Part shown: positions 1-39,086 of the stretch, in pieces
Position numbering within the stretch: position 1 is the stretch's first letter
How the letters are laid out: every line of letters starts with the position of its first letter
IMG/VR virus record: IMGVR_UViG_3300042397_001305
Location: 694-64,693 of that record
Source of the DNA: a virus
Lineage: Duplodnaviria > Caudoviricetes
Reading direction: 5' to 3' (one strand)
Length of the DNA: 64,000 nucleotides
Made by a program: the position numbers and the translations under genes
The notes under the pieces: generated by a model
Databases searched by the model: none
What the model was told of the DNA's origin: nothing
The model's input: only the letters and a program-made list of their open reading frames with translations

Positions 1-642
1 TATTGTCGGAGTTATTGTTGGTGTTGGGGTGTTTGTTGGGGTTTCCGTAGGCGTATTTGTTGGAGTTTCCGTAGGTGTATTTGTTGGAGTCTCTGTTGGA
101 GTTATTGTTGGAGTTAACGTAGGAGTATTTGTTGGAGTTTCTGTTGGTGTTAATGTAGGTGTGGGAGTAAGTGTCATTGTAGGTGTCATTGTAGGGGTAA
201 CACTAGGGGATACTGGTGTATACGGAACTATACAGCAAGGATAAACAGATGTATAACAATTCTCATACTCTAAATCATCAGCAATAAATGATTCTTGAAT
301 ATTGATGAATAACCTCTCATTAATTGGTAGGATTAAATTACCATCATCATTCTTAACTAAGAATTGACCTTCGTATCTTGCCGATATGTTTGTGTCTGAT
401 GAGGTAAATTGGTAGTAAATATAATATTCTGTCGGAGTATTTGGGTCGTCAAAAGTTTTTGAGACAATACCCGCCGGCTTAGACATTATTTTTGGAATAC
501 CGGTTTCAATATTAACCATAGAAAAGAAAATAGAAGAAGTCTCTAATAATTGCATAAAATTATTATACTCACTTCTTCCGTCTTTAACTACTTGAAGTTT
601 TAATACCGGTAATGTTGCGTTTTTCTTTATAAAAAAATCCAT
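1..642 (-). CDS. BppU-like baseplate/virion protein with C-terminal Pro/Thr repeats (3' end runs off the window)
   Basis: Not in the ORF track because no stop is reached; translated by hand from ATG at 642: [22 protein letters not shown]...[34 protein letters not shown]...PCCIVP then [11 protein letters not shown] repeats to the window edge. Confidence 0.75.
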
Positions 643-656
643 CTAAAGTTTTTTAT

Positions 657-664
657 TATAAATA
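657..664 (-). promoter_or_regulatory. putative phage late promoter TATTTATA
   Basis: TATTTATA on the sense strand 14 nt upstream of ATG 642; the motif recurs before most structural operons. Confidence 0.6.
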
Positions 665-681
665 CTTCAAATTATCGAATA

Positions 682-2358
682 TTAACTTTCTTTTCTTAAT
701 GCACCGTCATAATGTTCAAATCTATTATGTTCGGTTGGTGTTAATAATAATAGACCAGGATTTATTTTTCCTTTAACAGTCTCTTGATAACAATAACTCA
801 TTAATGTTTGTTCAAAAGGATGAGCCCATTTTGTTTCTAAATAACATTTATAATTACCCTCTCTTGTAAATACAATAGGCCAATTACATAAATAAACCTC
901 TCCGGTCACATATGGTAAACCTTTATGTGATTTAATTTCCTTGAATTGTGTTTTAGGCGAATTAGGGTCTAATCCTTGTACAGGTAATTTAGGATTGTTT
1001 GGCCAATGTTTTTGTCTAAAATCTTGAGGTACGTTATACCAACTCCATTGTACACTATTGTCACCAAAAAACTCACTAAAGTTTAGTTTAAGAAAATCAA
1101 AATTTTCTTTTTGAAGAATGTCTAAAGATTTTTGATATAAATTATCAACGTATCTATTAAACCCATTTCTACAAACTTCATCTTTTTTAGGATAAAAAGC
1201 CATATCATCTTCAAACCACCAATAACAATCTAAATCAGTCTCATTAAAATGTTCGGCAACAAACACTCTACCTCCAACAATACCAATATTATCTTTTTTA
1301 ATATGTTCAAAACCATATTGTTCGCATAGTTCAACATACCTTGGTGTTGTAGATAAATCTGTTGAATTATCTAATAAATATTTTTTAGGTTTATCAATGA
1401 AATCTTTATCATATTCTAACATTGAATTGATTAAAACCTCAAATTGTTTTGGTGAATTAAATGCTATCACATAAAGTCCAACTTTAGAAGTGTCTAAATT
1501 ATTAATAACCACGTTTTTTGAAACTTCGGACTTAACCTCAACAGTTGTATTCTTTAAATCTTCAAAAAACTTACCCATTAACCCATTACCATCTATTTCA
1601 GAATAAGTAATTAATGATGGGTATTTGTATGTCATAATGGTGAATAAAGATTCTTCAGTACCCATTAACCCACTTGATAAGGTACTATCCATTAATCCAT
1701 AATAGATATTATTAATTTCTGAAATCGTATCTTTCTTACCTCCGAAGAATCCGGCTCTCGCAACTCTATTAACCTGACCACCAGCTAATTCACATAGTTC
1801 ATTATATTTAAACCCGTGTATTTCAGAACTTGTTTCGTATGGGAAACAAACAAAGTGAAAATTTTTAACTAATTTAGGTAATTTATCTAAAACTTTATCG
1901 TGAGTAAAATATCCCGGATGTATTGTGTTTGTTAAACCAGCATCAATCCAAAACATATATTCAGAATCAAATTTATCTAAAATTTTAGCGTCGTGTAACA
2001 AAAATACTTTTGACATAACTAAAGGATTGTACATCTCTAATTTAGCCTGAGTTGATTCTGTTAACCAACCAACTTGATTAAACCAATCAGGGTTAGTTCT
2101 TATATTTTGTATTTTATTGTAAAACTCATTATTTCTAAACCAAGATAAATCTCTACGAACAAATTGAGTATTTTCACTACGTCTATTACTTGAGACAAAT
2201 TGTTCTAATTCTTCATCTCCAAAAATTATCATATTAACATCAACTTGTAATAGCTGTGCAAATTTATCTAAATAATGTTGGAATGACCGAGACCACCCTT
2301 CTTGAAGGTCACCTCTACCTATATCCCATAATCCTGTTACTAATGTTAATTTACTCAT
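682..2358 (-). CDS. HtrL/YibB (WlaTC)-family glycosyltransferase fused to a C-terminal GT-A domain
   Basis: N-terminal LTLVTGLWDIGRGD..WSRSFQHYL, FWIDAG and GTEESLF motifs typical of HtrL_YibB; second domain with LLDNS, NIGIVGGR and WFEDDM. Confidence 0.7.
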   Translation of the reverse strand: MSKLTLVTGLWDIGRGDLQEGWSRSFQHYLDKFAQLLQVDVNMIIFGDEELEQFVSSNRRSENTQFVRRDLSWFRNNEFYNKIQNIRTNPDWFNQVGWLTESTQAKLEMYNPLVMSKVFLLHDAKILDKFDSEYMFWIDAGLTNTIHPGYFTHDKVLDKLPKLVKNFHFVCFPYETSSEIHGFKYNELCELAGGQVNRVARAGFFGGKKDTISEINNIYYGLMDSTLSSGLMGTEESLFTIMTYKYPSLITYSEIDGNGLMGKFFEDLKNTTVEVKSEVSKNVVINNLDTSKVGLYVIAFNSPKQFEVLINSMLEYDKDFIDKPKKYLLDNSTDLSTTPRYVELCEQYGFEHIKKDNIGIVGGRVFVAEHFNETDLDCYWWFEDDMAFYPKKDEVCRNGFNRYVDNLYQKSLDILQKENFDFLKLNFSEFFGDNSVQWSWYNVPQDFRQKHWPNNPKLPVQGLDPNSPKTQFKEIKSHKGLPYVTGEVYLCNWPIVFTREGNYKCYLETKWAHPFEQTLMSYCYQETVKGKINPGLLLLTPTEHNRFEHYDGALRKES

Positions 2359-2359
2359 A

Positions 2360-3118
2360 TTATCTTTCTAAGTATTGTAATTTATAGAATTTATCTGCAT
2401 TGTCTGATGCGCTTTCTGAACGGTACCACCAACAACCACCTCTCTCATTTGGTAAATGTCCAATAATTGGGAATGATTCGACTCTTGGAGTATAATCCTC
2501 GTCTTTATCGTAACTAACCACCCATTTCTCAATATTGTGTTTACCCATATATGCCGATAAAATGATATCATCACTCCAAGATTCCCCAACAAATTCACTA
2601 AAGAAATCCGGTTTGAAGAAACTTCTTCTATACGAAACAGTCTTATACCCTTCAATTATCTTAACTCTAACATCATTTTTAACTGTTGTACAAAAATGAC
2701 AAGAACCATTTATTGCGGATATACCCGCAAACCCAATAGCCGCATTAGGGTATTGTTTTCGTTTTTCTATATGATACTCAATAAAACCATCCTCATATGA
2801 TAAATCGTCATCTACTGTGATAATAATAACATCATCACTTTCTTCTGTACGTAATATTGTTGGTAAGATTTTAGTCATAGAACCATAATCATCGGTTCTA
2901 AATATTTTTAATTTTGAATCTGTAATTTCTGTTAACCAAGAAGGTAAAGAGTACTCTTCATTTGTTTTTTTAACAACATAAGGGATGTTAAGATGAATTT
3001 CATAATTGGAATATGAAAGTGTTAGTAATCTATCAATTACCGGACGTAGACCACCTTTTGGGTCGTGATAATTAAGTCTTGAGGGTATAGTCGTTAAACT
3101 AATAATTATTTTTTCCAT
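2360..3118 (-). CDS. GT-A fold glycosyltransferase
   Basis: IIISLTTIPSR, DYGSMTKILP, IIITVDDD (DxD) and SDDIILS motifs. Confidence 0.75.
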   Translation of the reverse strand: MEKIIISLTTIPSRLNYHDPKGGLRPVIDRLLTLSYSNYEIHLNIPYVVKKTNEEYSLPSWLTEITDSKLKIFRTDDYGSMTKILPTILRTEESDDVIIITVDDDLSYEDGFIEYHIEKRKQYPNAAIGFAGISAINGSCHFCTTVKNDVRVKIIEGYKTVSYRRSFFKPDFFSEFVGESWSDDIILSAYMGKHNIEKWVVSYDKDEDYTPRVESFPIIGHLPNERGGCWWYRSESASDNADKFYKLQYLER

Positions 3119-3122
3119 TATT

Positions 3123-3980
3123 TTATTGTAATTTATTTATGTCTATAATTTCTTTTAATATTCTAACATTTGAATCAACCGTCCCATTCTCAAGATACCA
3201 CCGATATCCATTTTCTGAAATATACTTTAAAAACTCAGTATCATTTTTAACCTCGTTATACCTATCTAAAATAATTTTATTTAGAATTATCGGGTCATTG
3301 TCCATTTCAAACGAAATATAATGATAATTTGGAATTAATTTATTATGAAATTGTAAGTCCAATTTAGGTCTTAGTAAAGCCGACCTAGCGGATAATACCT
3401 CAATATCTCGATTACATATTTCACCGGCACCATTTAAAGATAAACAGATTTTATTGTTATTTAATTCTTCATAATATCGGTCAATTGGGAATAATTTTTC
3501 ATTAGTTATTTTTATATCACCAATTTTTGATAACGACAATCTTTCATTATATAAAAACCCTCTAAACCCCAATTCATTATTTTCTTTTTCCTCAATTTTT
3601 TTAGAATTTTTAGATAAATTATCAAAAATAATAGAATATGGTAAGTAGGTATACGGTGTAAAATTCATTTCAGGTTTAGTCCCCGAAGAAGAAATTAGTT
3701 CAACCATATTTTTAGGTTCCCAGCCATTCCATTCCCAAGTTAATTCGATAGCTTTATCCCAATAAGAAACTATTAAATATTTTTTAGTATCTAAATTAGT
3801 TATAGTCATTATTTGGGCCGAATAAATTCCGGATGGGTTTCCATTATAAAACATTCCTGAACTAACATATGAACATTCTATATGTGGATTTTCATTAATA
3901 AATTGTTTATAAAATTTATCAAAAACGTGTAATACTGACCAATCAGTGTGAGGACCTTCAAATCTAAATTCTAATCTCAT
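3123..3980 (-). CDS. GT-B glycosyltransferase (exostosin/Glyco_trans_1_2-like)
   Basis: C-terminal KICLSLNGAGEICNRDIEVL...LIPNYHYI...ISENGYRWY. Confidence 0.65.
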   Translation of the reverse strand: MRLEFRFEGPHTDWSVLHVFDKFYKQFINENPHIECSYVSSGMFYNGNPSGIYSAQIMTITNLDTKKYLIVSYWDKAIELTWEWNGWEPKNMVELISSSGTKPEMNFTPYTYLPYSIIFDNLSKNSKKIEEKENNELGFRGFLYNERLSLSKIGDIKITNEKLFPIDRYYEELNNNKICLSLNGAGEICNRDIEVLSARSALLRPKLDLQFHNKLIPNYHYISFEMDNDPIILNKIILDRYNEVKNDTEFLKYISENGYRWYLENGTVDSNVRILKEIIDINKLQ

Positions 3981-3983
3981 ATT

Positions 3984-4841
3984 TTAAAAATATCTATAAT
4001 ACAATGGGTGTTGAGAGGTAATGTTTTTTTCATTTAAAAACTTTTCTAAAAAAAATCTATTATTATGATGTGTATTAAAATTAAATTTACCAAATCTGAT
4101 AATTTCAGAATATAAGAATAAAAAATAATCACCGTCCACGTTTCTTTCATCAAACGCGTAATTAGAAGTGTAAGGTGTTTTATTCAAACAAAGATGTTTA
4201 AAATCGTAATCCCAAAAATCATTTTTTGTTTCATAAAAATCCCCATCCATATTATGTCTTAACTCACCTTTCATATTTTTAACATATGATGTATCAAAAT
4301 GATGTAACGCAACTTTATTATTACTCTGAAGTAGTTTAATTAAAGATTTTCTATTCCAAACTGATGGTTGTACAGATAACATATAACGATAAGATGTGTT
4401 TAAATTTAAAAAAATATTCTGAGGTAAATTATATTTAGAATAATCCATTTCATAGTTTGACCAATTTGTAAAATTATAACTCATAAGGGAAACGTGGTCT
4501 ATTTTTTCATCACTCATTACTGAAACAATTTTTTCTAAATTTTCTTTTTTAATTTCAGTAAATAGAGTATAATCGTCAAGCATAAATAAAACATAATCCG
4601 TATCAATTATTGATAATGCTTTAATCATAACTTCACCAAAGTGAGTTCCTCCACCACAATAAGGTGTTGATGTATTTATTAATTGAAAATCTGAAAAATC
4701 TAAATTATGTTTAATTTCATTACTTACTAAATATTTTTTAATATCAATATTTTGATTGAATTTATTAAATTCGTCAATTGATAATTTAGCAATCGGTGCG
4801 TGATTTTCAGAAGTGTAATATAATACGGATAAATTATTCAT
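3984..4841 (-). CDS. putative GT-A glycosyltransferase
   Basis: DYVLFMLDDY motif, SVQPSVWNR; context within the cluster. Confidence 0.6.
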   Translation of the reverse strand: MNNLSVLYYTSENHAPIAKLSIDEFNKFNQNIDIKKYLVSNEIKHNLDFSDFQLINTSTPYCGGGTHFGEVMIKALSIIDTDYVLFMLDDYTLFTEIKKENLEKIVSVMSDEKIDHVSLMSYNFTNWSNYEMDYSKYNLPQNIFLNLNTSYRYMLSVQPSVWNRKSLIKLLQSNNKVALHHFDTSYVKNMKGELRHNMDGDFYETKNDFWDYDFKHLCLNKTPYTSNYAFDERNVDGDYFLFLYSEIIRFGKFNFNTHHNNRFFLEKFLNEKNITSQHPLYYRYF

Positions 4842-4851
4842 TTTTTTTAAT

Positions 4852-5514
4852 TTAAATTCTGTAAGGTTTTATTTTTGTAAAATATTGATAATCATCGTTG
4901 TTTATTTTTAAATCATTGTGATTACCCTCAAGGTTATCAACAATTAAATTAGTTTTTTTAAAAATAATATCCCAACATCTTTCCATAGCTTTTTGTTGTT
5001 CTTTATTTTCAGGATATACTAATAAATTTTTTTCTATTTTTTGTGAATCTATATACGTAATAGCAAACATTGGCCCAAAAATACCCGTTTCAAATATTGT
5101 AGTACCAAAATGTTTTAATGAAAAATCTTTTTGAATTTGATTATCCCACCATCCACCTTCAAATGTTAGTATTGTGACAATATTTGAGGTTTTTAATTTT
5201 TCGTCTATTAAATTAAAAAAACCCATATTTTTAATCCTAATAGAATCTTGTAAGAATATAAACCTATCTGATTTTAAATTTTGAATTGCGTAAATATAAG
5301 CTCCGGTATCAAATCCTTTATAAGGTGTTTGATATACATTAATTTTTAATTTAAATTTATTAAAATATTTTAAATTCTCTAAGTAATCTATAAACTCAGA
5401 GTCACTTGATTGTGTATCAATTATTGATATTTCTTCTTTTATGTTAAGTTTTTCTAAGTCGGATAATAAATTTGGTAAAAAATTTATTCCATTGTTTGTT
5501 GCAACAACAATCAT
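4852..5514 (-). CDS. putative glycosyltransferase (GT2/RgpF-like)
   Basis: IIDTQSSD, GFDTGAYIYAI, FIFLQDS and AMERCW motifs. Confidence 0.6.
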   Translation of the reverse strand: MIVVATNNGINFLPNLLSDLEKLNIKEEISIIDTQSSDSEFIDYLENLKYFNKFKLKINVYQTPYKGFDTGAYIYAIQNLKSDRFIFLQDSIRIKNMGFFNLIDEKLKTSNIVTILTFEGGWWDNQIQKDFSLKHFGTTIFETGIFGPMFAITYIDSQKIEKNLLVYPENKEQQKAMERCWDIIFKKTNLIVDNLEGNHNDLKINNDDYQYFTKIKPYRI

Positions 5515-5517
5515 ATA

Positions 5518-6885
5518 TTATTTATTCTCTAAATAGTAATTTAAATCTTCAGGTGTACCTAATCCCCACATTTGTTTAATATCAAATGTTTTAATTTTTT
5601 TATCTCCTAAAATAGCCTCGTTGAATACCGGACAAACATAAAATTCATTATTAACTCTTATATCTTTTTGAATCATTTGTTCCGCAAATTTTACATAGTC
5701 GGAACCTTTTTTCCAATAATAAACACCAACGGTTGCGATATCAGATATTGGATTTTTTTCCGCAACTTCTGTTACAAAACCGGACTCGTCAATTTTAGCA
5801 AAAGACCATTTAGGGTGGGTTGACTTAAACGTTACTATACCACCATCACAATTTGTTTCATTCATTTTATACATAAACTCATTTGAATCCCATTCTACAA
5901 ATTGGTCAGAATTAGCCATAACTAATGGACTATCATTATCAATAAATTCTTTGGCTAATAATGTTGTACAAGCAGCCCCTTCGGTAACTCCCTCAACTTC
6001 AACTATTTTACAATTAGGTGTTATTAGATTCAATAACGTGTCTAAATTATATTTTTCTCTATGAGATTTTTGCACAATAAAAATAAAATTAGCATCCATA
6101 TTTAAATTATCAACAACAACTTGTATCATAGGTTTACCCTTAACGTCAATTAATGGTTTTGGGAATGTATACCCTGCTTTTTCAAAACGACTACCGGCAC
6201 CCGCCATAGGTATTAAAACGTTTAATTTATTATCAGACCATTTTGGTGTACTCATAACATTTGTATTTTTTATTTTATTTATTTTATTGATTATTAGAGA
6301 ATACGTAACATCATTAGGTTCTTTAACTCTTATTATATTTGAATTACTTCTACTCGCAGCTAATAACCCATATGGAGAATCTTCAACAATTAAGGTTTCC
6401 TCAGGTAAACATTCCATCATAGAAATCCCTTTCCAATATATTTCCGGATGTGGTTTACTATTTTTTACATCTTCATTAGAAAGTATTAAATCAAAATATT
6501 GGATAATGTCTAATTTACTTAATACCGTTAAAATTGTTTTTCTAATACTATTACTACAACAAACTATTTTATATCCATCATTTGATAATTTTTTCATACA
6601 TTCAATTAATTGATTTGATGGTAATAAATTTTGTAAGGATTCTAAAGTTAATTTTTGTTTTTTATCCCATACTCTCGAAAAAGATTCTTTAGGTAAACCT
6701 TTGTTGGAATGTAATAAATCTAATTTTTGATTCGTTTTTAATCCATCATAAAGACTTAAATGTTCATTCCATTCTATTATAAATTTAGGGTCTTCTTCTC
6801 TTAAAGCATCATTTAAACAATCATAATGTAGTTTTTTTGCTTCAACTAAAACACCATCTAAATCAAAAATTATTGTTTTAATCAT
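5518..6885 (-). CDS. HAD phosphatase (beta-PGM-like) fused to a BcbE-like sugar-phosphate nucleotidyltransferase
   Basis: IIFDLDGVL, KPHPEIY and IVEDSPYG (HAD); LIPMAGAGSRF..PKPLIDV, TEGAACT, NSDQ, EKNPIS and WGLGTPEDL (NTP transferase). Confidence 0.85.
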   Translation of the reverse strand: MIKTIIFDLDGVLVEAKKLHYDCLNDALREEDPKFIIEWNEHLSLYDGLKTNQKLDLLHSNKGLPKESFSRVWDKKQKLTLESLQNLLPSNQLIECMKKLSNDGYKIVCCSNSIRKTILTVLSKLDIIQYFDLILSNEDVKNSKPHPEIYWKGISMMECLPEETLIVEDSPYGLLAASRSNSNIIRVKEPNDVTYSLIINKINKIKNTNVMSTPKWSDNKLNVLIPMAGAGSRFEKAGYTFPKPLIDVKGKPMIQVVVDNLNMDANFIFIVQKSHREKYNLDTLLNLITPNCKIVEVEGVTEGAACTTLLAKEFIDNDSPLVMANSDQFVEWDSNEFMYKMNETNCDGGIVTFKSTHPKWSFAKIDESGFVTEVAEKNPISDIATVGVYYWKKGSDYVKFAEQMIQKDIRVNNEFYVCPVFNEAILGDKKIKTFDIKQMWGLGTPEDLNYYLENK

Positions 6886-7319
6886 TTATATTTTTCTATT
6901 ATATCTGAACAAATACCAAGACATTCGGTAATATTGTCATTGTTTATTTCTGGCATTACTGCAATACTATTCTTTATTGGTTGATTTCCCGGATATACCC
7001 AAATATGGTTTTGACTTGTTAAGGTTAAAGTATCTTCTTGATGCCAAAAATAATTAACATCATAACCACATTCTTTAAAATAAACAACCGATTCAACATT
7101 TTTACAATGAACCCATAATTTATTAACTCTATCACGTATCCATCTGAAATCTATACCATACTGAGGTTTATCGTGACCTAGATAAATTAAACCATCAATA
7201 TACCAAACATCAACCTCAACATCATAACCTTGGTTAATTGCTGAGTCAATGTAATTTGGTTCATTTTCATATGACTCAAATTTACCATTAATATTTCCTC
7301 TATGTGATATTAAAATCAT
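6882..7319 (-). CDS. small glycerophosphodiester phosphodiesterase-like protein
   Basis: LISHRGN..EN...YDVEVDVW..LGHD..WVHCKN...GICSD motifs. Confidence 0.65.
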   Translation of the reverse strand: MILISHRGNINGKFESYENEPNYIDSAINQGYDVEVDVWYIDGLIYLGHDKPQYGIDFRWIRDRVNKLWVHCKNVESVVYFKECGYDVNYFWHQEDTLTLTSQNHIWVYPGNQPIKNSIAVMPEINNDNITECLGICSDIIEKYK

Positions 7320-8023
7320 ATTGAATCTAAATTACCGTTTTTTCGTTTTATTTTATAAAAATTAAAAGGTTTCATATCAACTTTAATATTATTTTGAGTA
7401 ATCTGTTTATATAGAATATGTTCCGGAGCATTAGTTGTACTAATATGTTCCCACATATCCTCAATCGTGTTGTAAATATTAGAAACTACAGTCATTACAT
7501 TTGTGGTGCCATACATAAATACTTCCGGAATCGCCTCACCCCAACTACCCAATAAATTGGTGTAAAGAGTGTTTTCATTAGGTAATTCTAATACCGCATC
7601 GTTTAAAAAAAATAAGTCACCTCTTAATTTTAAAACAACATCGTATTGTTTATTTTGGGAAACAACCATTTCATTACATTGGTATATTTTATAAAACATA
7701 CCTAACACATTTTTCACATATGGTTGAGAATTAACGTGTTGATATTTTTTATCTTTTTCATTAAAAAACGACTCGATTGATAAATAATTTTCAAAAATAA
7801 AATCAATAGGTTTAAGTTTATCAACAATAGTGTTTTTAATATTCTCAGGAATTAAATCATTAGAATTAAAATCATATTTTTTAGAAACATCACCATAACC
7901 ATATACGTCCCAAAAATTTAAATAAACATCACAATCATATTTTGAAATTAAATGTTTAATATGGTTATCAATATTATCCTCAAAATTACGAAGCATTCCT
8001 GAGTAACAAAGGGCAACTTTCAT
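7316..8023 (-). CDS. putative glycosyltransferase (KVALCxSGxxR family)
   Basis: MKVALCYSGMLRNF, MFYKIY, YDVVLKLRGDL and PEHIL motifs. Confidence 0.55.
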   Translation of the reverse strand: MKVALCYSGMLRNFEDNIDNHIKHLISKYDCDVYLNFWDVYGYGDVSKKYDFNSNDLIPENIKNTIVDKLKPIDFIFENYLSIESFFNEKDKKYQHVNSQPYVKNVLGMFYKIYQCNEMVVSQNKQYDVVLKLRGDLFFLNDAVLELPNENTLYTNLLGSWGEAIPEVFMYGTTNVMTVVSNIYNTIEDMWEHISTTNAPEHILYKQITQNNIKVDMKPFNFYKIKRKNGNLDSI

Positions 8024-8025
8024 AA

Positions 8026-9273
8026 TTACAAATTACCTGTTATTCTATCACACCAACCTTTTGACTTACTATATGGCCAAACAACCCAGTACTTTGGTTT
8101 ATGAGTAGTTTGGAACTCCCTCCATACTTTACAATATCCGTCAGGGTCTCTCATCATATTATTAATCTCATTAATGTCCGCATCTTTTCTGTAAATTGTT
8201 TCGTCTTTTTCATCGTGAAAAGCAACAACCCAATATTCATAATCTTTCTCAGGTACTTGAGTAAACCCAATATCGACACAATGTTTAAAGATACTCGCAA
8301 AACTTGCCATCCATTCTTCTTCAGTTTCGTATACTTGAGGATTAGGTGGATATTTTTTATCTAAAACATATTGTTGTACCGCTCTGTTTGAAAATTTAAG
8401 ACCTGAATATATTTCATAGTCTTTAAGTGTTCTTTCGGTACCAAATCCGTATTTACTAAAATCCATAGTAACTTCTTCACCGTCCATACCAAATAACTGA
8501 CGATTTTTCTTATGAGATAATTCATTTTTCTTACCCCATTCTTTATCGTCATCCCATTGTTTGGTTCTACCCTTACGAGTATATTCGTGCCAAATCACTG
8601 TTTTGTGTGGGTGGAATAAATCATATCCGTGGGTGAATGCTCTAACGGCAATTGATATCTCTTCTCCGTGGAAATAAAACTCAGGGTCGTGTTGAACCTC
8701 AACGCTGAATTCACCAACAGTAAACGCCATATGTGCGGAGTAAAATCTTGAAGTAACCGGTTCTTTAAGGTCTTGCCATCCCGGAATAGTTTCAGGTAAA
8801 AAGAATACCGCACCTTCAGGAATGAATCTATCAAAAGCCATTCTCCAAGGTTCTTTAACTCTACCTGCCGGGTCGTTATCCGGGTCAAATGAAGAAACAT
8901 ATCCGGTTAATAAAGGTTTCTTAAACCCTTTCTTTTGAAGTTGTTTAACCATTTTGATTAAGGTGTCATCCCAATCTTTTTCAAATCTCATATGAGAATC
9001 TATTTGAAGGGTATACTCCTCACCTTTATATAATTGTTGTACTTGATTTCTTGCCCAACACACACCTTTTGATTCTGTATATAGAACATCAACAACTCTA
9101 AATCGTTTATCTTTCGCATATTCAGATAAATCATCAAACCCATCCTCAGGATGATATTGACGACAAATTCCAATCACTAAATTTTTAGGTTTTTTTGCAT
9201 TCTCCAACATATTTTTAATTGTTGGGATAAGTTGGGGGTCACGATAGGCAGCTATCTGTACAAATATTTTCAT
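8026..9273 (-). CDS. GT60 family UDP-GlcNAc:polypeptide N-acetylglucosaminyltransferase (Skp1-HyPro/mucin-type GlcNAc-T-like)
   Basis: IFVQIAAYRDPQL, SKGVCWARN, LQIDSHMRF..WD, FHGEEISIAVRAFTHGYDLFHP and WHEY motifs; start moved to the ATG at 9273. Confidence 0.85.
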   Translation of the reverse strand: MKIFVQIAAYRDPQLIPTIKNMLENAKKPKNLVIGICRQYHPEDGFDDLSEYAKDKRFRVVDVLYTESKGVCWARNQVQQLYKGEEYTLQIDSHMRFEKDWDDTLIKMVKQLQKKGFKKPLLTGYVSSFDPDNDPAGRVKEPWRMAFDRFIPEGAVFFLPETIPGWQDLKEPVTSRFYSAHMAFTVGEFSVEVQHDPEFYFHGEEISIAVRAFTHGYDLFHPHKTVIWHEYTRKGRTKQWDDDKEWGKKNELSHKKNRQLFGMDGEEVTMDFSKYGFGTERTLKDYEIYSGLKFSNRAVQQYVLDKKYPPNPQVYETEEEWMASFASIFKHCVDIGFTQVPEKDYEYWVVAFHDEKDETIYRKDADINEINNMMRDPDGYCKVWREFQTTHKPKYWVVWPYSKSKGWCDRITGNL

Positions 9274-9329
9274 ATATCTCTTATTTTTAAACAAAAGATA
9301 ATAATACGAGATAAATAATAAATGGTAAA

Positions 9330-11489: not shown

Positions 11490-11492
11490 ATC

Positions 11493-11500: not shown

Positions 11501-11503
11501 TGA

Positions 11504-15640: not shown

Positions 15641-15646
15641 TTTTTT

Positions 15647-18752: not shown

Positions 18753-18800
18753 ATTATTTAACTTTGTCTTAATAATAAACAATTACGAAAAAACATAAAT

Positions 18801-24800: not shown

Positions 24801-27800
24801 TATATAATCAGCGACCAAAACATTTTGTTGGCCACTTGTTAAATTTGTTGTTAATGTTTGTGTAGTTGCCGTTGAAGGGATTCTTGATAAAACTTTATAT
24901 CCTGAAACGTCAGAATTTTGACTTTCATTAAAATAGTATGTTTGACCTGCAGTAATACCGTCTTGACCACTAATACCTGAAAGACCGCTTATCCCCGATA
25001 ATCCGCTATCACCACTTAATCCTGAAATACCTGAATCCCCCGAAAGTCCTGAAAGACCACTATCACCACTTAATCCTGAAATACCTGAGTCTCCCGATAA
25101 TCCGCTATCTCCTGATAAACCTGATGTCCCGCTATCTCCCGATAATCCACTAATACCTGAATCACCACTCAATCCGCTAATACCACTATCACCTGAAAGA
25201 CCTGAAATACCTGAATCTCCACTAAGACCGCTATCACCTGATAAACCTGATTCTCCTGACAACCCACTATCACCGGAAAGTCCTGAGTCCCCACTTAAAC
25301 CTGAAATACCCGATGTTCCTTCAATACCGGATAAACCACTATCTCCCGATAATCCTGATATACCGCTGTCTCCTGAAATACCACTAATACCCGAATCACC
25401 ACTTAAACCTGAAATACCACTATCTCCGGAAAGACCTGAATCACCACTTAATCCTGAAAGTCCTGAAAGACCTGAGTCCCCTGATAAACCACTAATACCA
25501 CTCTCACCTGAAAGTCCTGAGTCTCCTGACAATCCACTTAATCCACTATCACCTGATAATCCTGAGTCACCGCTAATACCTGATGTCCCTTCAATACCTG
25601 AAATACCACTATCACCACTTAAACCACTAATACCCGAATCTCCTGACAATCCTGAAAGACCACTATCTCCCGATAATCCGCTATCACCTGAAAGTCCCGA
25701 TGTTCCTTCAAGACCTGAAAGTCCTGATATACCTGAATCTCCTGACAATCCTGATGTACCTTCAATACCGGAAATACCGATGTCTCCTGATAATCCACTG
25801 ATACCACTATCACCACTTAATCCGCTAATACCTGAATCTCCTGATAACCCACTTAAACCGCTATCACCTGAAATTCCACTTAAACCGCTGTCACCTGATA
25901 ATCCGCTAATTCCGGAATCACCTGACAATCCTGAAAGACCACTGTCTCCTGATAAACCACTGATACCAGATGTTCCACTTAGTCCTGAGATACCTGAATC
26001 TCCACTTAATCCGCTAATACCCGAATCACCACTAAGACCGCTATCACCTGAAAGTCCTGAGTCCCCACTTAAACCTGAAATACCCGATGTTCCTTCAATA
26101 CCGGATAAACCACTATCTCCGGAAAGACCACTGATACCCGATGTTCCGGATAAACCTGAAACCCCACTATTTCCACTTATCCCACTAATACCGGAAGTTC
26201 CGTTTAATCCTGAAATTCCTGAAATACCACTTAAGGCTGCGGTTGTTAAAAGTATTGCCGAGAAATAACTAGCACTACCATTAGCACTACCATTTAAGTC
26301 AACACTACTTGAGTGACCATTATATGCGGTGAAATCTACATAATCAGTAGACCCATTAAAGTAAATTAGTTTACTATTACCCTGACTAACACCTGTAGGT
26401 GTTGTTATTTGATTTTGGTAAATAAATACTTGAGTACCATTTTTACGAATTTGTATGTTATATTGGTTGGTAGTAGACGTACTACCATTCCATAATACTT
26501 CTAATGTTACACTATAATAACCTGCAACCGTTGGGGTAAATCTATATGTTGATGTATTCCACCAGTTCTGTGGGTCAAAGTCATCAATAAACTGAATTAC
26601 TGTGTCCGATGTTGAAGGTATTGATTGGGCTGTTGATAAGTAACCTTGAGTAACATAATTACTTTGAGTTAATCCTGTCCCGGCAAGACCTTGTAAACCA
26701 CTATTTCCTGATAAACCACTTAAACCACTAATACCAGAATCACCGCTTAAACCTGAAAGTCCTGAATCTCCTGATAAACCTGAAATACCTGATGTCCCTT
26801 CAATACCACTATCACCTGATAACCCGCTAATACCACTTAAACCTGAAAGACCCGATGTTCCTTCAATACCACTATCTCCGGATAAACCTGAGATACCACT
26901 TGAACCATATATACCACTAATACCTGACGCTCCGTCTACACCTGCAATACCATCCGCACCTACTAAACCTGAAATACCACTATCACCACTTAACCCGCTA
27001 TCACCTGAAAGACCTGAATCTCCACTTAAACCTGATAATCCTGAAATACCTGAATCTCCTGATAATCCACTATCACCTGATAAACCACTAATACCTGAAT
27101 CTCCTGATAATCCACTATCACCTGATAATCCTGAAATACCTGAATCTCCCGAAAGACCTGAGTCTCCACTTAATCCACTAATACCTGAATCACCCGACAA
27201 TCCTGAAAGACCACTATCACCCGAAAGACCTGAGTCTCCCGATAATCCGCTGTCACCACTTAGTCCACTAATACCCGAATCACCACTTAATCCTGAAATA
27301 CCACTGTCTCCTGATAAACCACTAATACCACTATCTCCTGAAAGACCTGAGTCTCCACTTAAACCTGAAACACCACTATCACCTGATAAACCTGAGTCAC
27401 CACTTAATCCACTAATACCTGATATACCTTCAAGTCCTGATAACCCTGAATCTCCCGATAAACCTGAAATACCTGAAATACCTGATTCGCCCGAAAGACC
27501 TGAGTCTCCACTTAAACCACTATCACCTGAAATACCTGAGTCACCTGAAAGTCCCGAAGTCCCTTCAAGACCTGAAATACCACTATCTCCCAATAATCCT
27601 GAGATACCTGAATCACCACTTAAACCACTATCACCACTTAATCCACTAATACCTGAATCACCACTTAAACCTGAAATACCACTATCACCTGAAAGACCTG
27701 AGTCTCCCGATAAACCACTTAAACCGCTATCACCTGAAAGACCTGAGGTTCCTTCAATACCTGAAAGACCTGAATCCCCACTTAAACCGGAAATACCGCT

Positions 27801-30812: not shown

Positions 30813-30831
30813 ATTTTTTTTAAATTAATGG

Positions 30832-31710
30832 TTACGGAGAAATTGTATTTCCTCTAAAATAAATACTTTGATTATTGTTTAATGCGAAGATTCTATTCGG
30901 AAATGTTGTATAAACTTTATATGTGACAGGAGGAATTGTTGTTCCTGTATACGTAAATGTATATTGATTAATAACACCTTCCGTTAATACTGTTACTAAT
31001 GAATTAACGTCACCATCAGTACTAATATCTATAGAGGTTTGGGTTTGGTTATTTGTTAATGAAACAGGTATAATCCAAGTATACCAAGAAACATCAGAAA
31101 CAGTTCCTTGTGGTACTATGGTTGTTAAGAAATTATAAGCAACAATTGGTTGTCCAAAACTATCAAAACCTCCACTTTGTTGTGGTACTGATTGTCTAAT
31201 AATTGACGGGAATTGACCACTAGTCCAACCACTAAAATCAATATATCTATTCATATCAATATTAAACTGTGTTTGGTCTTGAGCTGGTTGAGAGTTATTT
31301 GAGAACCCAAAGAAATTAGAACCACCGTCATACATCCATTGTCCAATATCCATTGAACCATTTGTAGGTTCTATAAATAAATTGGCAAAATTTGCTGGTG
31401 TTGGGGTCGGGGTTGGCGTGTTTGTCGGAGTTTCTGTTGGTGTTGGAGTATTTGTTGGGGCGATTGTTAATGTCGGTGTTGGTGTAGGTGTCGGTGTTGC
31501 GGTCGCCGTTGGTTCATAATAATTTAATATACAAGTTTTATTAAACTGTGGTATGTATATTTTGTATTGACCATAATAATCATCAGTTTCATAATCATAC
31601 GGTAAAATATGTGAACCTAAATTTATCACACCACCAGTTGCCGGGTAAAATACAATGCTTCCACTATACCCACTATAATTCTCTGTTAATATTCTAAGGG
31701 TTTTTCCCAT
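30832..31710 (-). CDS. putative virion protein with Pro/Thr linker
   Basis: N-domain resembles 31730..32146 and C-domain resembles the end of 9330..11489; (PT)n tract. Confidence 0.65.
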   Translation of the reverse strand: MGKTLRILTENYSGYSGSIVFYPATGGVINLGSHILPYDYETDDYYGQYKIYIPQFNKTCILNYYEPTATATPTPTPTPTLTIAPTNTPTPTETPTNTPTPTPTPANFANLFIEPTNGSMDIGQWMYDGGSNFFGFSNNSQPAQDQTQFNIDMNRYIDFSGWTSGQFPSIIRQSVPQQSGGFDSFGQPIVAYNFLTTIVPQGTVSDVSWYTWIIPVSLTNNQTQTSIDISTDGDVNSLVTVLTEGVINQYTFTYTGTTIPPVTYKVYTTFPNRIFALNNNQSIYFRGNTISP

Positions 31711-31729
31711 ATTTTTTTATTTATTTTTT

Positions 31730-32146
31730 TTAATAGCAACCACAAGGATTTGTACACGTAGCCGATGGTGTTGGTGTATTTGTATTTGTTGGCGTATTTG
31801 TTGATGTTATTGTTGGTGTAGGTGTCGGTACTTTACAAGGGTCAAATGTTGGTGTTGGTGTCATTGTTGGTGTAACTGTTGGTGTTACCGTTCTTGTTAT
31901 TGTTGGAGTAACAGTTGGTGTTGGTGTAGGTTCAGGTACATTTATTATTATAGGACAATCTGACCCCTCAACTAAAATTGTGTAAGTTCCGTATACGTCA
32001 CGAGGAGGTGATAATAATGCAGGGTTAAATTCATAAGGTAGAATTTGATTACCTAAATTAATTACCACATTAACTTTTGACGGTTTAAATATGATATTTG
32101 CCGTCTCACCAATATGACTTACACTTTGTATTATTATTGAACTCAT
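31730..32146 (-). CDS. small Pro/Thr-rich (mucin-like) putative virion protein
   Basis: C-terminal half is almost entirely PT/PTxT and ends in CTNPCGCY. Confidence 0.65.
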
Positions 32147-32149
32147 CTT

Positions 32150-35071
32150 TTAAAACTTATTTTCAACGGCCAAACATATTTCACCTCGTTCATTTATTAA
32201 TCTTGCCATATCTGTAAATGAGATAAATGCGTGACCTGATTTACCCCAAGATTTACCCCAACTATTCTTAATTCTAAATAGTCTATTAATTGTGTCAACG
32301 CCATTAATTACATAAGCGTGACCACCAGATAACGTCCCACCAATAGATATAACTCCATTAGAATTTGGGTAAAACATATTGCGATACCAATTAGTTCCCA
32401 CAACTACCGGCCCAATTTGTAATACTGTATTTATTAATGTTTGAACATCATATGCCCAATAATAATTACCAATCTTACGTGTACTGTTTAAATATTTTGC
32501 ACCACCTCTAACAGATGTTCCATTATAATTTGTTCCTGGCCACTCATCAACTAATTGTGCTTGTCGATAAATTAACGTTGGGTTTACCGGTGGTTGTACA
32601 CCTGAATGAACTACAGGTCCATCAGCAATCCAATGAGCCCAAGCGTACCCTACACATTGTGGTGTATTCCCTTGATTCCCCCACCACATATTAGCATCCC
32701 AATACTTACTTGTTAATCCAACAATTGTTGGTGTAGGTGTTGGTGTTGACATAATACCTCTTGTATTTGTTGGAGTTATTGTCGGTGTAGGTGTTGGAGT
32801 AATACTTCTTGTTTTTGTTGGTGTAGGTGTTGGAGTCGGAGTAATACTTCTTGTTTTTGTTGGTGTAGGTGTTTTAGTTGGAACTACACGTCGTACAACT
32901 CTTGTAACACTTTTAATTAATTCAAAATGGTCTTTAATTAAATAATTATTATCTCTCTCATCCGGAATATAAATCCTACCTAAATCAAATGGAGGCAGTT
33001 CTTCCGGTGTTGTTATTACATATGTAAAATCATTAACCGGACATACTTCACCACAATCCGGACAATCCGGATTAAACATATTAAAGGTATCTTTTAATAA
33101 ATTAAAATTATGTTTAACCTCATCCGCAGATAATGGTTCAACATACATTCTAAATTGAGATATTCCCCCATCAAAAGAACCTGCAAAATTTTGCTCTAAT
33201 AATATGTCAGTAGTTAGTCCACTAAATGTTGTTCCAACTAAATCATTTGTTGGTAAACATTCCGGGTCTTGGATATAAGTTGTTCCGGTTGTTGATGAGA
33301 ATGTTAAATTCTCTCTTAAACCTTGAGTACCTCCACCCCACGAAATATTATAAGGTACCCCAACTTGTTTTTCCTTATCAGTACTTAACGCTCTTGGAAT
33401 TATTTCCTCAATATCTTCAAATGTGTAGAATATTCTACCATTAATGTAAATTTTTAATCTACCTTTTCTAAAATCTTTATCGATTAACCATTTTTCATTA
33501 AGATTAACCAAATCAATTTGTTCAGGGTCTTTACCACAAGTTTGAGTATATGGTACGGTGATTAATTCAGTAGAATTACCAGCAAGACCATCTAAATATT
33601 TTTTCTCAGTGATATCACCAATACCTCCTCTATACCATAAATCACAAGTGTTTAACCAAGTGTATCTTTCCCAAACGGCTGTAATGTGGAACCAATGTTC
33701 TAAATCTAAATACGATGGATTATGTTGTAAACAATATGGGTAAATTGGTGGTGTACAATAGTTGTCTATCGTGTATCCTGTTGTATAAGTGATTCCTGTT
33801 GTTGAACAAGTTCCACTAGTTTCACATCCTCCGGTAAATCTTAAAATTCTAACACCTATTTGAGGATTATTTGGTGACCCGCATAATTTCATTGCGAACG
33901 CATTTGACATCGAATCAAACAATGGGTCACTTTCACAAGTATTCTCAACGGAACCCGGAGTTAAATTACAAGTATCACAAGTTTGACATTCATTACAAGA
34001 TATACATTGTGTGCAAGTACACCCTGAAGTACAAGCCGTGATTGGTTCACAATTTGAAGGTACCGGTACCGGAGTAGGTGTTGGTGTTGGAGTCGGGGTA
34101 GGACTTGGACAATCGTGTATTTTATATTCCCAACCACAAGTAATACAACCATCACAGTCTGCTTTGGTTGGTCTTGGTGGGTAAACATAAATACATCTAC
34201 TATTAACCACTGAATTTTCACAACAAGCGCAAGTTGTTAAACCTGTAACATTAGAAGTTACTCTAGTATATCCCGTTAAACATCTCGGATGTCCATCCGC
34301 ATAATGATAAAATTTATTTTCAGCTCGAGCCCCAAAATAAAAGAACATATCCTTATTATTAGGGTAAATTTCATTTAAAGTGGTTTCTCCACTGCTTGGG
34401 GAATATTGATTGAATAGTCTTGGTTTTAATAACATTTCAACTGACCATCCTTTATTCATCCTTTCAGGGAATATTTCATAATCATACCCAAATAATCTAT
34501 AAAACCCTTGATAGAACCCACCATATAATTCGTGGTATCTACCAACACTATCGTTCTTACTAACTACCTCATATAATATGGTATCGTCAAAACCTGAGAA
34601 TCTAACGTTAGTACTAGTATAACCTGTAACTTGGAATAATTTTAATCTTCTATCAAATGATAATCTGTTAAATTTAGTGTAGTCATTAATTCCATTGGTG
34701 AATGTAATTGATTGTCCTGTCATTGATTCAACCAACCCATTATCAATACCTGTTAACCCAATATCACAAGAGGTATTGGCGGTTAAACAACTTAAATCTA
34801 TATTTTCAGGATTGTAATAATTTTTTGAAACAAAAACATTATTAAAGTTATATTCCTTATAATTTAAAACAATTGGTTGTACCGAAATTGAATCATTAAT
34901 ATCAAAATTAATAGGTAATCTATTACCATAGGTTTCGGCAATTAAATAAGGTGAGAAAACCACTTCTTCTTTGTAGTTTCTTTCATCAGTAGATAACGTC
35001 ATATCACTAAGGTCTAACGCTAATTTTACCCCCCAATTCGGTTTCGGAAATTGATTTATATTTTGACTCAC
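32150..35071 (-). CDS. LamG/ConA-like, Cys-rich, Pro/Thr virion protein with C-terminal papain-like (C1) peptidase
   Basis: WFHITAVWER, LKIYING and GGISQFRMYVEPLSADEV (LamG); NQGNTPQCVGYAW, GGHAYVING and IKNSWGKSWG (C1 Gln/Cys/His/Asn); GTG start. Confidence 0.75.
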   Translation of the reverse strand: MSQNINQFPKPNWGVKLALDLSDMTLSTDERNYKEEVVFSPYLIAETYGNRLPINFDINDSISVQPIVLNYKEYNFNNVFVSKNYYNPENIDLSCLTANTSCDIGLTGIDNGLVESMTGQSITFTNGINDYTKFNRLSFDRRLKLFQVTGYTSTNVRFSGFDDTILYEVVSKNDSVGRYHELYGGFYQGFYRLFGYDYEIFPERMNKGWSVEMLLKPRLFNQYSPSSGETTLNEIYPNNKDMFFYFGARAENKFYHYADGHPRCLTGYTRVTSNVTGLTTCACCENSVVNSRCIYVYPPRPTKADCDGCITCGWEYKIHDCPSPTPTPTPTPTPVPVPSNCEPITACTSGCTCTQCISCNECQTCDTCNLTPGSVENTCESDPLFDSMSNAFAMKLCGSPNNPQIGVRILRFTGGCETSGTCSTTGITYTTGYTIDNYCTPPIYPYCLQHNPSYLDLEHWFHITAVWERYTWLNTCDLWYRGGIGDITEKKYLDGLAGNSTELITVPYTQTCGKDPEQIDLVNLNEKWLIDKDFRKGRLKIYINGRIFYTFEDIEEIIPRALSTDKEKQVGVPYNISWGGGTQGLRENLTFSSTTGTTYIQDPECLPTNDLVGTTFSGLTTDILLEQNFAGSFDGGISQFRMYVEPLSADEVKHNFNLLKDTFNMFNPDCPDCGEVCPVNDFTYVITTPEELPPFDLGRIYIPDERDNNYLIKDHFELIKSVTRVVRRVVPTKTPTPTKTRSITPTPTPTPTKTRSITPTPTPTITPTNTRGIMSTPTPTPTIVGLTSKYWDANMWWGNQGNTPQCVGYAWAHWIADGPVVHSGVQPPVNPTLIYRQAQLVDEWPGTNYNGTSVRGGAKYLNSTRKIGNYYWAYDVQTLINTVLQIGPVVVGTNWYRNMFYPNSNGVISIGGTLSGGHAYVINGVDTINRLFRIKNSWGKSWGKSGHAFISFTDMARLINERGEICLAVENKF

Positions 35072-39084: not shown

Positions 39085-39086
39085 TA

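Follow-up and report, generated by a model that had tools for sequence, protein, structure and literature searches.

A GT60-type glycosyltransferase, threonine-periodic tract proteins and a variable glycan cassette in an uncultured T4-like jumbo phage: a candidate phage-encoded O-glycosylation system

Results

The virus record IMGVR_UViG_3300042397_001305 of IMG/VR contains 64,693 bases, and all but 693 of these make up the stretch analyzed here (64,000 nucleotides, the window hereafter; CheckV completeness 22%). Its minus strand encodes a GT60-type glycosyltransferase next to a protein with threonine-periodic tracts, together with a cassette of putative glycan-building genes, an HtrL-like protein, sugar-activation enzymes and a giant collagen-like protein (Table 1). 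A first-pass annotation of the window had proposed that these genes glycosylate the virion, and every open reading frame (ORF) that it invoked is present on the minus strand at the coordinates it gave. We propose that they could constitute a phage-encoded cytoplasmic O-glycosylation system in which a GT60-type initiator and strain-variable extension enzymes act on the phage's own (T-x)n-tract proteins, a reading for which we consider belief and doubt to be about evenly balanced.

Table 1. Features of the window, in map order
Feature	Position	Strand	Evidence or composition
Tail-appendage-like protein, cut by window start	1-642	-	~135-residue Ig-like N-domain, then (T-x)n tract of at least 66 residues
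HtrL-like two-part glycosyltransferase-like protein, far cassette border	682-2358	-	HtrL_YibB N-half; C-half without family
Variable cassette	2360-8023	-	2360-3118, 3123-3980, 3984-4841, 4852-5514, 5518-6885, 6882-7319, 7316-8023
GT60-type glycosyltransferase, candidate initiating enzyme	8026-9294 (likely ATG at 9273)	-	PF11397
Modular Thr-tract protein directly upstream of GT60	9330-11489	-	conserved ~72-residue N-domain, then (T-x)n linker
Multi-enzyme protein, 1378 residues	11504-15640	-	GT17-like, methyltransferase, GT2 and GT4 domains and a further GT2-like stretch
GT9-like (heptosyltransferase-family) protein	15647-16930	-	PF01075, E 5.3e-7
Sugar-activation genes	16936-18782	-	PfkB-type kinase 16936-17667, nucleotidyltransferase 17660-18064, small cupin 18040-18426, HAD phosphatase 18408-18782
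Collagen-like protein, 3989 residues	18843-30812	-	five G-X-Y regions (3080 residues), four globular domains between
Two small Thr-tract proteins	30832-31710, 31730-32146	-	N-domains, then (T-x)n tracts
Modular 973-residue protein, four (T-x)n tracts	32150-35071	-	C-terminal papain-type peptidase domain (Peptidase_C1, E 1.9e-6)
Glycan genes beyond 35071	37864-47266	+	interleaved with nucleotide-metabolism genes
Glycosyltransferase	37864-39084	+	phrog_7162, E 5.2e-44
Cytidylyltransferase	39087-39542	+	CTP_transf_like, 7.1e-14
Double-GT2 protein	42266-43771	+	Glyco_tranf_2_5, 1.1e-19; GT2, 3.2e-9
Possible GT2 protein	46448-47266	+	weak GT2, 1.1e-4, just under cut-off
gp23-type major capsid protein	60318-62195	-	PF07068, E 5.7e-75; phrog_138, E 1e-66

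The candidate initiating enzyme is a confident member of the GT60 family (PF11397; E 9.8e-71; score 239.5 bits, cut-off 21; aligned to positions 2-43 and 95-350 of the 352-position model), and the ATG at 9273 is its likelier start because homologues are 415 residues long. As the first-pass annotation had stated, its gene lies directly downstream of a Thr-tract gene, at a distance of 36-57 bases. The protein comprises a GT-A catalytic domain and an additional C-terminal beta domain (approximately residues 337-422, ~85 residues) that falls outside the Pfam model; it contains no hydrophobic segment, hence it should be soluble and lack a membrane anchor. An AlphaFold model built with 45 homologues reached a pLDDT of 95.2, and Foldseek returned polypeptide GalNAc-transferases as its top matches (E 4.5e-11), which places the fold nearest to polypeptide transferases rather than to lipid- or polysaccharide-directed GT-A enzymes. 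No GT60 structure was found by sequence in the PDB, where the protein matched only chance T7 RNA polymerase rows and the GT60 profile matched nothing, and the fold comparison was therefore made with GT27.

In fold the model is a GT-A enzyme of the GT27/GT60 type, and it has both the D-x-H motif and the distal His: D99-x-H101 and H236, as well as E211 and E212, are invariant across the 45 homologues. By an approximate linear mapping of the aligned ranges, D99, H101 and H236 presumably correspond to the D-x-H...H metal site of GalNAc-T2. The family is large, with 4719 clusters at 50% identity (E <= 0.001) and, among clusters at 90% identity, more than 7000 in the vicinity of the window protein; 393 viral contigs carry the gene. 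Some relatives (P0122-P0134) are giant proteins of 1100-2500 residues with up to four GT60-like stretches. In protists, GT60 enzymes initiate mucin-type O-glycosylation on Ser/Thr-rich domains and are related to animal GalNAc-transferases, according to passages of PMC8724618. A complex prediction for the window enzyme with the first 110 residues of the upstream Thr-tract protein scored 0.00 against a mark of 0.32; it was run without controls and weighs neither way.

Five minus-strand proteins had been singled out as Pro/Thr-repeat proteins (1-642, 9330-11489, 30832-31710, 31730-32146 and 32150-35071), and each does carry 24-44 PT/TP dipeptides, compared with 0-6 in other ORFs of the window; the exception is a 235-residue protein with 14 (56339-57046, minus strand; 11% Pro; no family assigned), whose Ala/Pro/Thr-rich linkers are unlike the tracts discussed here. 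The tracts themselves are real, but "Pro/Thr-repeat" describes them incompletely. The window contains 12 (T-x)n>=5 tracts, 236 residues in total, versus two (P-x)n>=5 tracts, and x is Pro at only 68 of 118 positions; in the related loci described below, 598 (T-x)n tracts stand against 48 (P-x)n tracts. Among 25 N-termini of homologues of the protein directly upstream of GT60 (38-93% identical overall), T77, T79, T81 and T83 are invariant and two further Thr nearly so, whereas the residues between them vary and the Thr period is kept in every sequence, with the caveat that alignment of repeats favors invariant alternate-Thr columns. Read from these alignments, the tracts are (T-x)n with constant Thr and variable x, not simply "PT". 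Because the conserved residue is the hydroxyl-bearing Thr, they fit a glycan acceptor better than a mere spacer.

The proteins that carry these tracts are modular. In the upstream protein, which has no Pfam or PHROG match, the linker is followed by a small Cys domain and then by variable modules with two more tracts. The N-domains of the two small tract proteins look related by eye only, and neither protein has a Pfam match. The 973-residue protein matches the peptidase family phrog_16701 (E 1.2e-51) and, much less well, phrog_8510, annotated "virion structural protein" (E 0.0023). Searches of deposited phages by tblastn found no match for the N-domain of 1-642, residues 1-724 of the 973-residue protein or the N-domain of the collagen-like protein. 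No signal peptides were seen on the tract proteins when their translations were read by eye.

For comparison of gene order we used the best 80 of the 393 GT60-bearing viral contigs (76-99% identical), many of which are near-duplicates and therefore do not represent 80 independent cases. Across these loci the order is Thr-tract protein, GT60, variable slot, HtrL-like protein and 1-642 homologue, with a family-B DNA polymerase next in the relatives examined. The same-strand ORF upstream of GT60 contains a Thr-Pro tract of at least 12 residues in 71 of the 80 loci, versus 98 of 902 other ORFs. These upstream ORFs range from 98 to 3322 residues (in one relative, 986 of 1776 residues are tract); their first ~72 residues are conserved, and the tract begins straight after. 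Homologues of the window's own upstream protein occur in 62 of the 80 loci, those of 1-642 in 74, and those of the small tract proteins 30832-31710 and 31730-32146 in 22 and 21, respectively.

The far border of the slot is formed by the HtrL-like gene, which is found in 73 of the 80 loci and encodes a member of the HtrL_YibB family (PF09612; E 2.8e-17, 63.6 bits against a cut-off of 24.1, residues 3-252). Its score against TIGR02192 lies below the cut-off (E 1.3e-19, 70.9 versus 264.9), and it is therefore not the equivalog of Escherichia coli YibB; no PDB sequence match was found. Between GT60 and this gene, the slot holds 1-8 genes in 842-7012 nucleotides, and the 233 ORFs found there group at 60% identity into 114 clusters, which represent 62 families. 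Pfam analysis of the 114 representatives identified glycosyltransferases (GT25, 9; GT10, 5; GT34, 5; GT2, 4; also GT11 and GT7C) and methyltransferases (Methyltransf_24, 8; FtsJ, 8; FkbM, 7; CmcI-type, 5; one representative may match several), along with a carbamoyltransferase, a DegT aminotransferase and acetyltransferases. This composition fits the first-pass suggestion that further enzymes extend and cap the glycan. Constant borders around swap-in glycan-building genes are typical of loci that generate surface-glycan diversity. The five GT10 and one GT11 representatives are fucosyltransferase-type domains, and two slot representatives in relatives contain a PLOD-type glycosyltransferase domain, known from collagen-modifying enzymes.

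The window's own cassette genes recur in 0-12 of the 80 loci. Only one has Pfam hits: 5518-6885 encodes a HAD phosphatase fused to a sugar-1-phosphate nucleotidylyltransferase (HAD_2, 2.1e-29; NTP_transferase, 8.4e-12). Gene 2360-3118 has a weak heparosan-synthase match (E 0.0027), and 7316-8023 matches phrog_13607, a family of no assigned function. No Pfam family was found for 3123-3980, 3984-4841, 4852-5514 or 7316-8023, and a PDB sequence search gave no match for 3123-3980, 4852-5514 and 7316-8023 and only chance rows for 3984-4841 (E 0.17 or worse).

Upstream of these genes lie a multi-enzyme protein, a GT9-like protein and the sugar-activation genes. Pfam domains in the first are Glyco_transf_17 (6.7e-21), Methyltransf_24 (7.4e-11), Glycos_transf_2 (3.8e-15, two stretches) and Glycos_transf_1 (3.2e-22); comparable megaproteins in relatives contain GT4, GT9 and FkbM domains. 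The GT9-like protein matches PF01075 in its C-half only (29.7 bits, cut-off 22) and heptosyltransferase I poorly (TIGR02193; E 0.0047, 16.2 bits versus a cut-off of 185.3). Its nearest Atlas clusters are viral and auto-named "Aah/TibC family" (score 0.90, 163-166 shared features), which is a lead only, and no PDB entry, TibC included, matched it by sequence.

The sugar-activation genes match PfkB, CTP_transf_like and Cupin_2 in Pfam. Their NCBIfam matches fall below the curated cut-offs for rfaE_dom_I (1.6e-33; 116.1 versus 345), rfaE_dom_II (4.4e-25; 88.2 versus 181.5) and, for the phosphatase, the EcbF-BcbF capsule phosphatase (1.7e-27; 95.9 versus 162). An ADP-heptose pathway (HldE kinase and adenylyltransferase, GmhB, GmhA) is thus not recovered at equivalog level, and no SIS-type isomerase was found among these genes, where a small cupin occupies its place. 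By family, the genes resemble the ADP-heptose route and may act likewise.

In total, Pfam supports glycosyltransferase domains in four minus-strand genes (682-2358, 8026-9294, 11504-15640 and 15647-16930), with one further weak match. The first-pass count of about nine glycosyltransferases is plausible given the four cassette genes without a family, but is only partly verified, as those four match nothing; the sugar-activation enzymes that it listed are present, with Pfam or NCBIfam domains in five genes.

As judged from its gp23-type capsid gene, whose relatives are very common and include contigs of 229-321 kb, the window is part of a T4-like jumbo phage genome of ~300 kb, from a lineage that is both abundant and uncultured. 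The capsid protein is a Gp23-family member (Table 1), and the deposited phages closest by capsid share less than 45% identity with it (Microcystis phage Mel-JY01, Flavobacterium "immuto" phages and two huge uncultured phages). In IMG/VR, 598 confirmed stretches carry close relatives of the capsid gene (74-95% identical); the large contigs are among them, one with terminal repeats. One 229-kb relative (G014, the record behind L241) has provirus status in IMG/VR, and this surprising label for a T4-like jumbo phage may be a classification artefact.

The first-pass annotation had suggested examining co-occurrence across related phages. We counted (PT)3 tracts in whole genomes by a degenerate codon pattern, with the reversed pattern as a control. 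All 13 GT60-bearing phage genomes contain such tracts (9-53 hits each), compared with 0-1 hits for the reversed control, and chance is therefore excluded. Five of these genomes came from GT60 loci (26-52 hits), five were chosen by capsid similarity alone and all proved to have PF11397 (9-53 hits), and three are cultured phages (XacN1, 31; Xoo-sp13, 23; RAS14, 11). None of the five nearest capsid relatives outside the lineage has PF11397, and their (PT)3 hits number 0, 0, 0, 0 and 1. Co-occurrence with GT60 thus holds for the tracts (13 of 13 versus 0 of 5) but not for the Gly-X-Ser triplets, which are not conserved with it in relatives.

GT60 homologues with 46-49% identity are present in Xanthomonas phage XacN1 and its relatives, Xoo-sp13 and the Stenotrophomonas phages CM1 and RAS14; that of XacN1 is ORF334 (49%). 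In XacN1 and Xoo-sp13 an HtrL-like gene (42-44% identical) lies downstream of GT60, and the cassette between them consists of a carbamoyltransferase and two ORFs; RAS14 has a comparable layout, judged by ORF sizes only. XacN1 also has a GT9 gene and a giant tract-bearing ORF325 near the GT60 module. Passages of PMC5852040 place the baseplate wedge gene of XacN1 at ORF323, two ORF numbers from ORF325. They also report at least two virion glycoproteins and suggest ORF328 and ORF334 as their makers.

A scan of species genomes returned 566 relatives of the GT60 protein. The closest non-viral copies (56-82% identical) are in metagenome-assembled genomes (MAGs) of Bacteroidota (Saprospiraceae, Cytophagaceae, Arcticibacterium; L093-L104), on contigs where GT60 and an HtrL-like gene (56-62%) stand side by side among neighbors that are unlike the rest of the window and include no other phage-like genes. 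These copies hint at Bacteroidota hosts or at gene exchange, and could also be mis-binned phage DNA. A link to the "moraphages", large aquatic phages of Bacteroidota with four core groups of glycosyltransferases (passages of PMC12619734), is conceivable. One Bacteroidota MAG of 7.3 Mb yielded just one (PT)3 hit, yet its GT60 has a divergent neighbor of 381 residues with long Ser/Thr/Pro repeats and, by eye, both a signal of the twin-arginine type and a C-terminal end that resembles a sorting domain; the arrangement at a Lewinellaceae locus is the same. At two Saprospirales loci (L097:8504-9649 and L100:7997-9751, both minus strand) the C-terminus resembles a sorting domain for type-IX secretion.

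In loci from Gemmatimonadaceae, Vicinamibacterales and Alphaproteobacteria, the gene directly upstream of GT60 encodes a protein with a Ser/Thr/Pro-rich tail and, by eye, a twin-arginine-type signal. The (T.)5 pattern misses Ser/Thr/Pro repeats, and mucin-like ORFs were scored by S+T >= 13 and P >= 6 within 30 residues, a rule that may, where DNA is GC-rich, also catch ORFs in the wrong frame (L137 and L156 seem doubtful). Further mucin-like neighbors were L109:9230-9955, L111:9155-9874, L125:8230-8850 and L144:8460-10001. Among the 67 loci from bacteria or MAGs that span 8 kb or more, 15 have a mucin-like ORF within 10 kb, directly adjacent in about seven, and 52 have none in that range. Such ORFs make up 18 of the 1022 ORFs of the bacterial loci, which gives an expectation of roughly 1.5-2 adjacencies; this enrichment is rough, since the background is drawn from the same neighborhoods and not from random genome samples. 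Adjacency of GT60 and a mucin-like gene recurs in several bacterial lineages and is far from universal. The arrangement, with its apparent signals, may represent a cytoplasmic O-glycosylation route that acts before export.

Whether the tract proteins belong to the virion was approached through the protein that is cut by the window start. Its N-domain is highly conserved among homologues (mean column identity 80%), while the remainder varies and ranges from nothing to ~650 residues (total length 122-784), and this layout of conserved N-terminal and variable C-terminal parts is that of fibre or receptor-binding proteins. An AlphaFold 2 (AF2) model of the N-domain (pLDDT 79.7) is an Ig-like sandwich. 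A fold search of BFVD gave named matches that include BppU-domain, minor tail, tail fibre and tailspike proteins (E 4e-5 to 4.5e-4, TMq 0.43-0.54); a search of the PDB gave generic Ig domains only, with the NF5 baseplate as best phage match (TMq 0.46, rank 25). BppU_N (PF10651) was not hit in Pfam and appears in the Atlas on 13% of one cluster (score 0.90). On these models, the Thr-tract proteins are likely virion parts (tail or surface appendages), although this is the weakest link in the argument.

The estimate of about a thousand Gly-X-Ser triplets in the collagen-like giant proved accurate: its runs comprise 1026 G-X-Y triplets, of which 904 have Ser at Y (918 G.S matches). X is mostly Leu, Ile, Asp, Thr or Gln, and Pro makes up 1% of residues. 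The protein ends in a Cys-rich C-terminal domain, and a Pfam search of its five non-collagen pieces gave only two chance rows and a weak C1q match for residues 1381-1528 (E 0.01, below the cut-off). Its make-up suggests a trimeric fibre, which as a triple helix would span approximately 0.88 micrometre. In one relative the non-collagen parts recur in a 1340-residue protein without the repeats, and therefore the G-X-Y repeats are not a conserved partner of GT60. A 162-residue, 31%-Pro ORF lies antisense within the gene (25780-26268, plus strand); it is a shadow frame of the repeats and unlikely to be a gene.

Discussion

A mechanism is proposed in which the soluble GT60-type enzyme would add the first sugar to the regularly spaced Thr residues of the (T-x)n tracts that connect modules within the phage's own large proteins, and in which the protein encoded directly upstream would be the first acceptor. 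Going by their families, the HtrL-like enzyme and the glycosyltransferases, methyltransferases and other modifiers of the cassette would lengthen and cap the glycan, whose structure would accordingly vary among phage strains; the multi-enzyme protein and the GT9-like enzyme may contribute to extension. Phage genes for a heptose-like and another nucleotide sugar could supply the donors, as their family matches below cut-off suggest. The modified proteins would then be released with the virion as tail or surface appendages, which is the least secure step. A scan of 50 window ORFs found none with more than one hydrophobic segment, and no flippase, polymerase, initiating phosphoglycosyltransferase or ABC exporter was found within the window; together with the lack of signal peptides, this fits direct glycosylation of soluble proteins inside the infected cell.

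Several observations weigh against this proposal. HtrL_YibB, GT9, GT25 and heptose-type genes are best known from lipopolysaccharide (LPS) cores. The window represents 22% of the genome, and export genes could sit elsewhere or come from the host. Co-occurrence of GT60 and tracts comes from no more than two lineages of phages (the uncultured clade and that of XacN1), and shared ancestry could therefore explain it; the Thr-Pro tracts are moreover spread over the whole of the related genomes and could be plain linkers. At nine of the 80 loci the upstream ORF has no tract by the pattern used, and in XacN1 the GT60 gene does not adjoin a tract protein. A fusion ("Rosetta stone") test was negative, with a tract in the same polypeptide in only one of 150 GT60 representatives. 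The Bacteroidota contigs with the closest GT60 and HtrL pair (56-70%) come from genomes almost without (PT)3 tracts, and most bacterial loci lack a mucin-like ORF nearby. The virion location, finally, depends on the fold resemblance of 1-642 (TMq 0.43-0.58) and on the C1q match at E 0.01.

The main rival explanation, which we regard as unlikely, is that the island remodels the LPS core, capsule or another envelope glycan of the host, for example as a superinfection block, and that the tracts are ordinary linkers. HtrL_YibB, GT9 and the GT25 of relatives are LPS- or capsule-type families, as are the rfaE-like kinase and adenylyltransferase and the EcbF/BcbF-type capsule phosphatase. The GT60 and HtrL pair also stands adjacent in Bacteroidota contigs that have no other phage-like genes, and 52 of the 67 bacterial loci do without a mucin-like neighbor. 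Against a role in envelope glycans stand the lack of export and polymerization genes in the window, where no scanned ORF exceeds one hydrophobic segment, and a GT60 fold closest to polypeptide transferases. The Thr-tract gene directly upstream in 71 of the 80 loci and the conservation of Thr rather than Pro also speak against it, and glycoproteins have been reported in the XacN1 virion (passages of PMC5852040).

A little less likely still is that the enzymes glycosylate other targets, either host proteins or, in the manner of mycobacteriophages and chloroviruses, a few particular phage proteins (for instance subunits of the capsid or tail tube), while the tracts serve as unmodified spacers. 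Glycosylation of capsid and tail-tube C-termini has been described for mycobacteriophages (Freeman et al. 2023, as cited in part of PMC12619734), the main-text passages of PMC5852040 do not name the XacN1 glycoproteins, and the XacN1 GT60 is not beside a tract protein. Against this, GT60 and tract abundance go together across genomes, the alternate Thr is invariant, the adjacency recurs in bacteria, and the characterized GT60 and GT27 relatives covered in passages of PMC8724618 act on Thr/Ser-rich mucin-type tracts.

That some or all of the glycosyltransferases sugar hypermodified phage bases against restriction is very improbable: phage glycosyltransferases commonly glucosylate DNA (Pyle et al. 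2024, as cited in part of PMC12619734) and the plus-strand block includes dUTPase/dCTP-deaminase-like and exonuclease genes, but the window, which spans 22% of the genome, showed neither a hydroxymethylase nor a gene for base modification. Glycosyltransferases, nucleotide-sugar genes and domains of the sugar O-methyltransferase type in such numbers and variety fit a complex glycan, and the GT60 fold matches polypeptide transferases.

Glycosylation of the phage's own tract proteins, as the first-pass annotation had proposed in outline, is thus favored by the GT60 fold, the linkage to tracts, the lack of export genes and the XacN1 virion glycoproteins, whereas the LPS-type families and the bacterial loci without mucin-like neighbors do not fit it well. 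A bolder extension is possible, although we would sooner doubt than accept it: the lineage would make its own "mucins", with GT60 loading Thr tracts of up to ~1000 residues and the swap-in cassette producing strain-specific glycans in the manner of O-antigen loci. The resulting coat would cover appendages including the near-micrometre collagen-like fibre, the Ser-at-Y triplets of which might also be loaded, possibly with heptose by the GT9-like enzyme, and the bacterial pair would act before twin-arginine export.

The window enzyme resembles the GT60 enzymes of Dictyostelium and Trypanosoma cruzi, and GT27, in its full-length PF11397 match, its GT-A fold with D-x-H and distal His, and the association of its gene with Thr-rich, Pro-containing tracts. 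It differs in being viral or bacterial instead of eukaryotic, in being soluble and in its extra ~85-residue C-terminal beta domain. With the XacN1 group the window shares GT60, many (PT)3 tracts and, in XacN1 and Xoo-sp13, the HtrL-like partner and cassette; a DNA polymerase gene lies a few genes away both in XacN1 and in the window's relatives. The hosts of that group are Gammaproteobacteria, however, and its members have no directly upstream Thr-tract gene and, in the stretch examined, no collagen-like giant.

Mycobacteriophage enzymes likewise place glycans on the phage's own structural proteins (Freeman et al. 2023, via passages of PMC12619734), but there the targets are capsid and tail-tube C-termini and the glycosyltransferases are few, whereas the window has a GT60-type enzyme, Thr tracts, a cassette and nucleotide-sugar genes. 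TibC and Aah (BAHT family) are cytoplasmic GT9-related enzymes that heptosylate proteins, as described in part of PMC4358343. The GT9-like gene of the window similarly lies near heptose-type activation genes, but its product has no sequence match to TibC.

For the collagen-like giant, the closest parallels are BclA of Bacillus anthracis and BclA3 of Clostridioides difficile, trimeric collagen-like filament glycoproteins, the latter with a dedicated glycosyltransferase (passages of PMC10470788 and PMC7157674). The giant likewise has a hydroxy amino acid at Y of nearly every triplet and a weak C1q-like domain, but it is far longer (3989 residues, ~1000 triplets), has Ser rather than Thr and almost no Pro, and is phage-encoded. 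In animals, glycosylated Thr at Y stabilizes a Pro-poor cuticle collagen. Chloroviruses and mimivirus also use their own glycosyltransferases and sugar-nucleotide synthesis for structural proteins, but they infect eukaryotes and rely on other enzyme families and acceptors. Giant eukaryotic viruses are cited by the XacN1 authors as an analogue for the making of a virus's own glycans (passages of PMC5852040).

Glycosylated virions are well known for eukaryotic viruses, and the phage-encoded case was found in print only for mycobacteriophages (passages of PMC12619734); the XacN1 glycoproteins, also in print in part of PMC5852040, may be made by these genes. No description of a GT60-type enzyme in phages was found in the open-access literature, nor, in the same literature, any mention of a GalNAc-transferase-like initiator, of Thr-periodic tracts that it probably uses as acceptors, of the variable cassette, of how wide the lineage is or of the bacterial parallel with its signals judged by eye. 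If the proposal is correct, a very common group of environmental phages builds dense, strain-variable O-glycans on its own proteins via a eukaryote-like initiating enzyme. This would be relevant to the ways in which large phages adhere to hosts, grazers and particles or evade them, to the reason for Thr-Pro "linkers" in their fibre proteins and to the question of where the enzymes of mucin-type glycosylation came from. Cultured relatives with the same module exist, among them XacN1 with its reported virion glycoproteins (part of PMC5852040).

Further genes and observations

The G+C content is 41-44% within the collagen-like gene and 26-38% elsewhere in the window, and no tRNA genes were found in the window. 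Interleaved with the plus-strand glycosyltransferases, and on the same strand, are genes for PhoH (43776-44540, E 4.8e-59), a dUTPase-like protein (40236-40850) and a PolB-type exonuclease-like protein (39535-40236). The major capsid gene is adjoined by an endonuclease VII-like gene (59527-60249, minus strand; phrog_1035, E 2.5e-13) with weak homologues in five of the 80 related loci; it may be a mobile insertion of the homing type. Among the gene products of relatives are an LCIB-type beta-carbonic anhydrase-like protein (L012:15829-16899, plus strand, E 4.6e-27) and a 512-residue protein with Fe/Mn superoxide dismutase domains, the latter encoded beside the glycan module (L015:19446-20984, minus strand).

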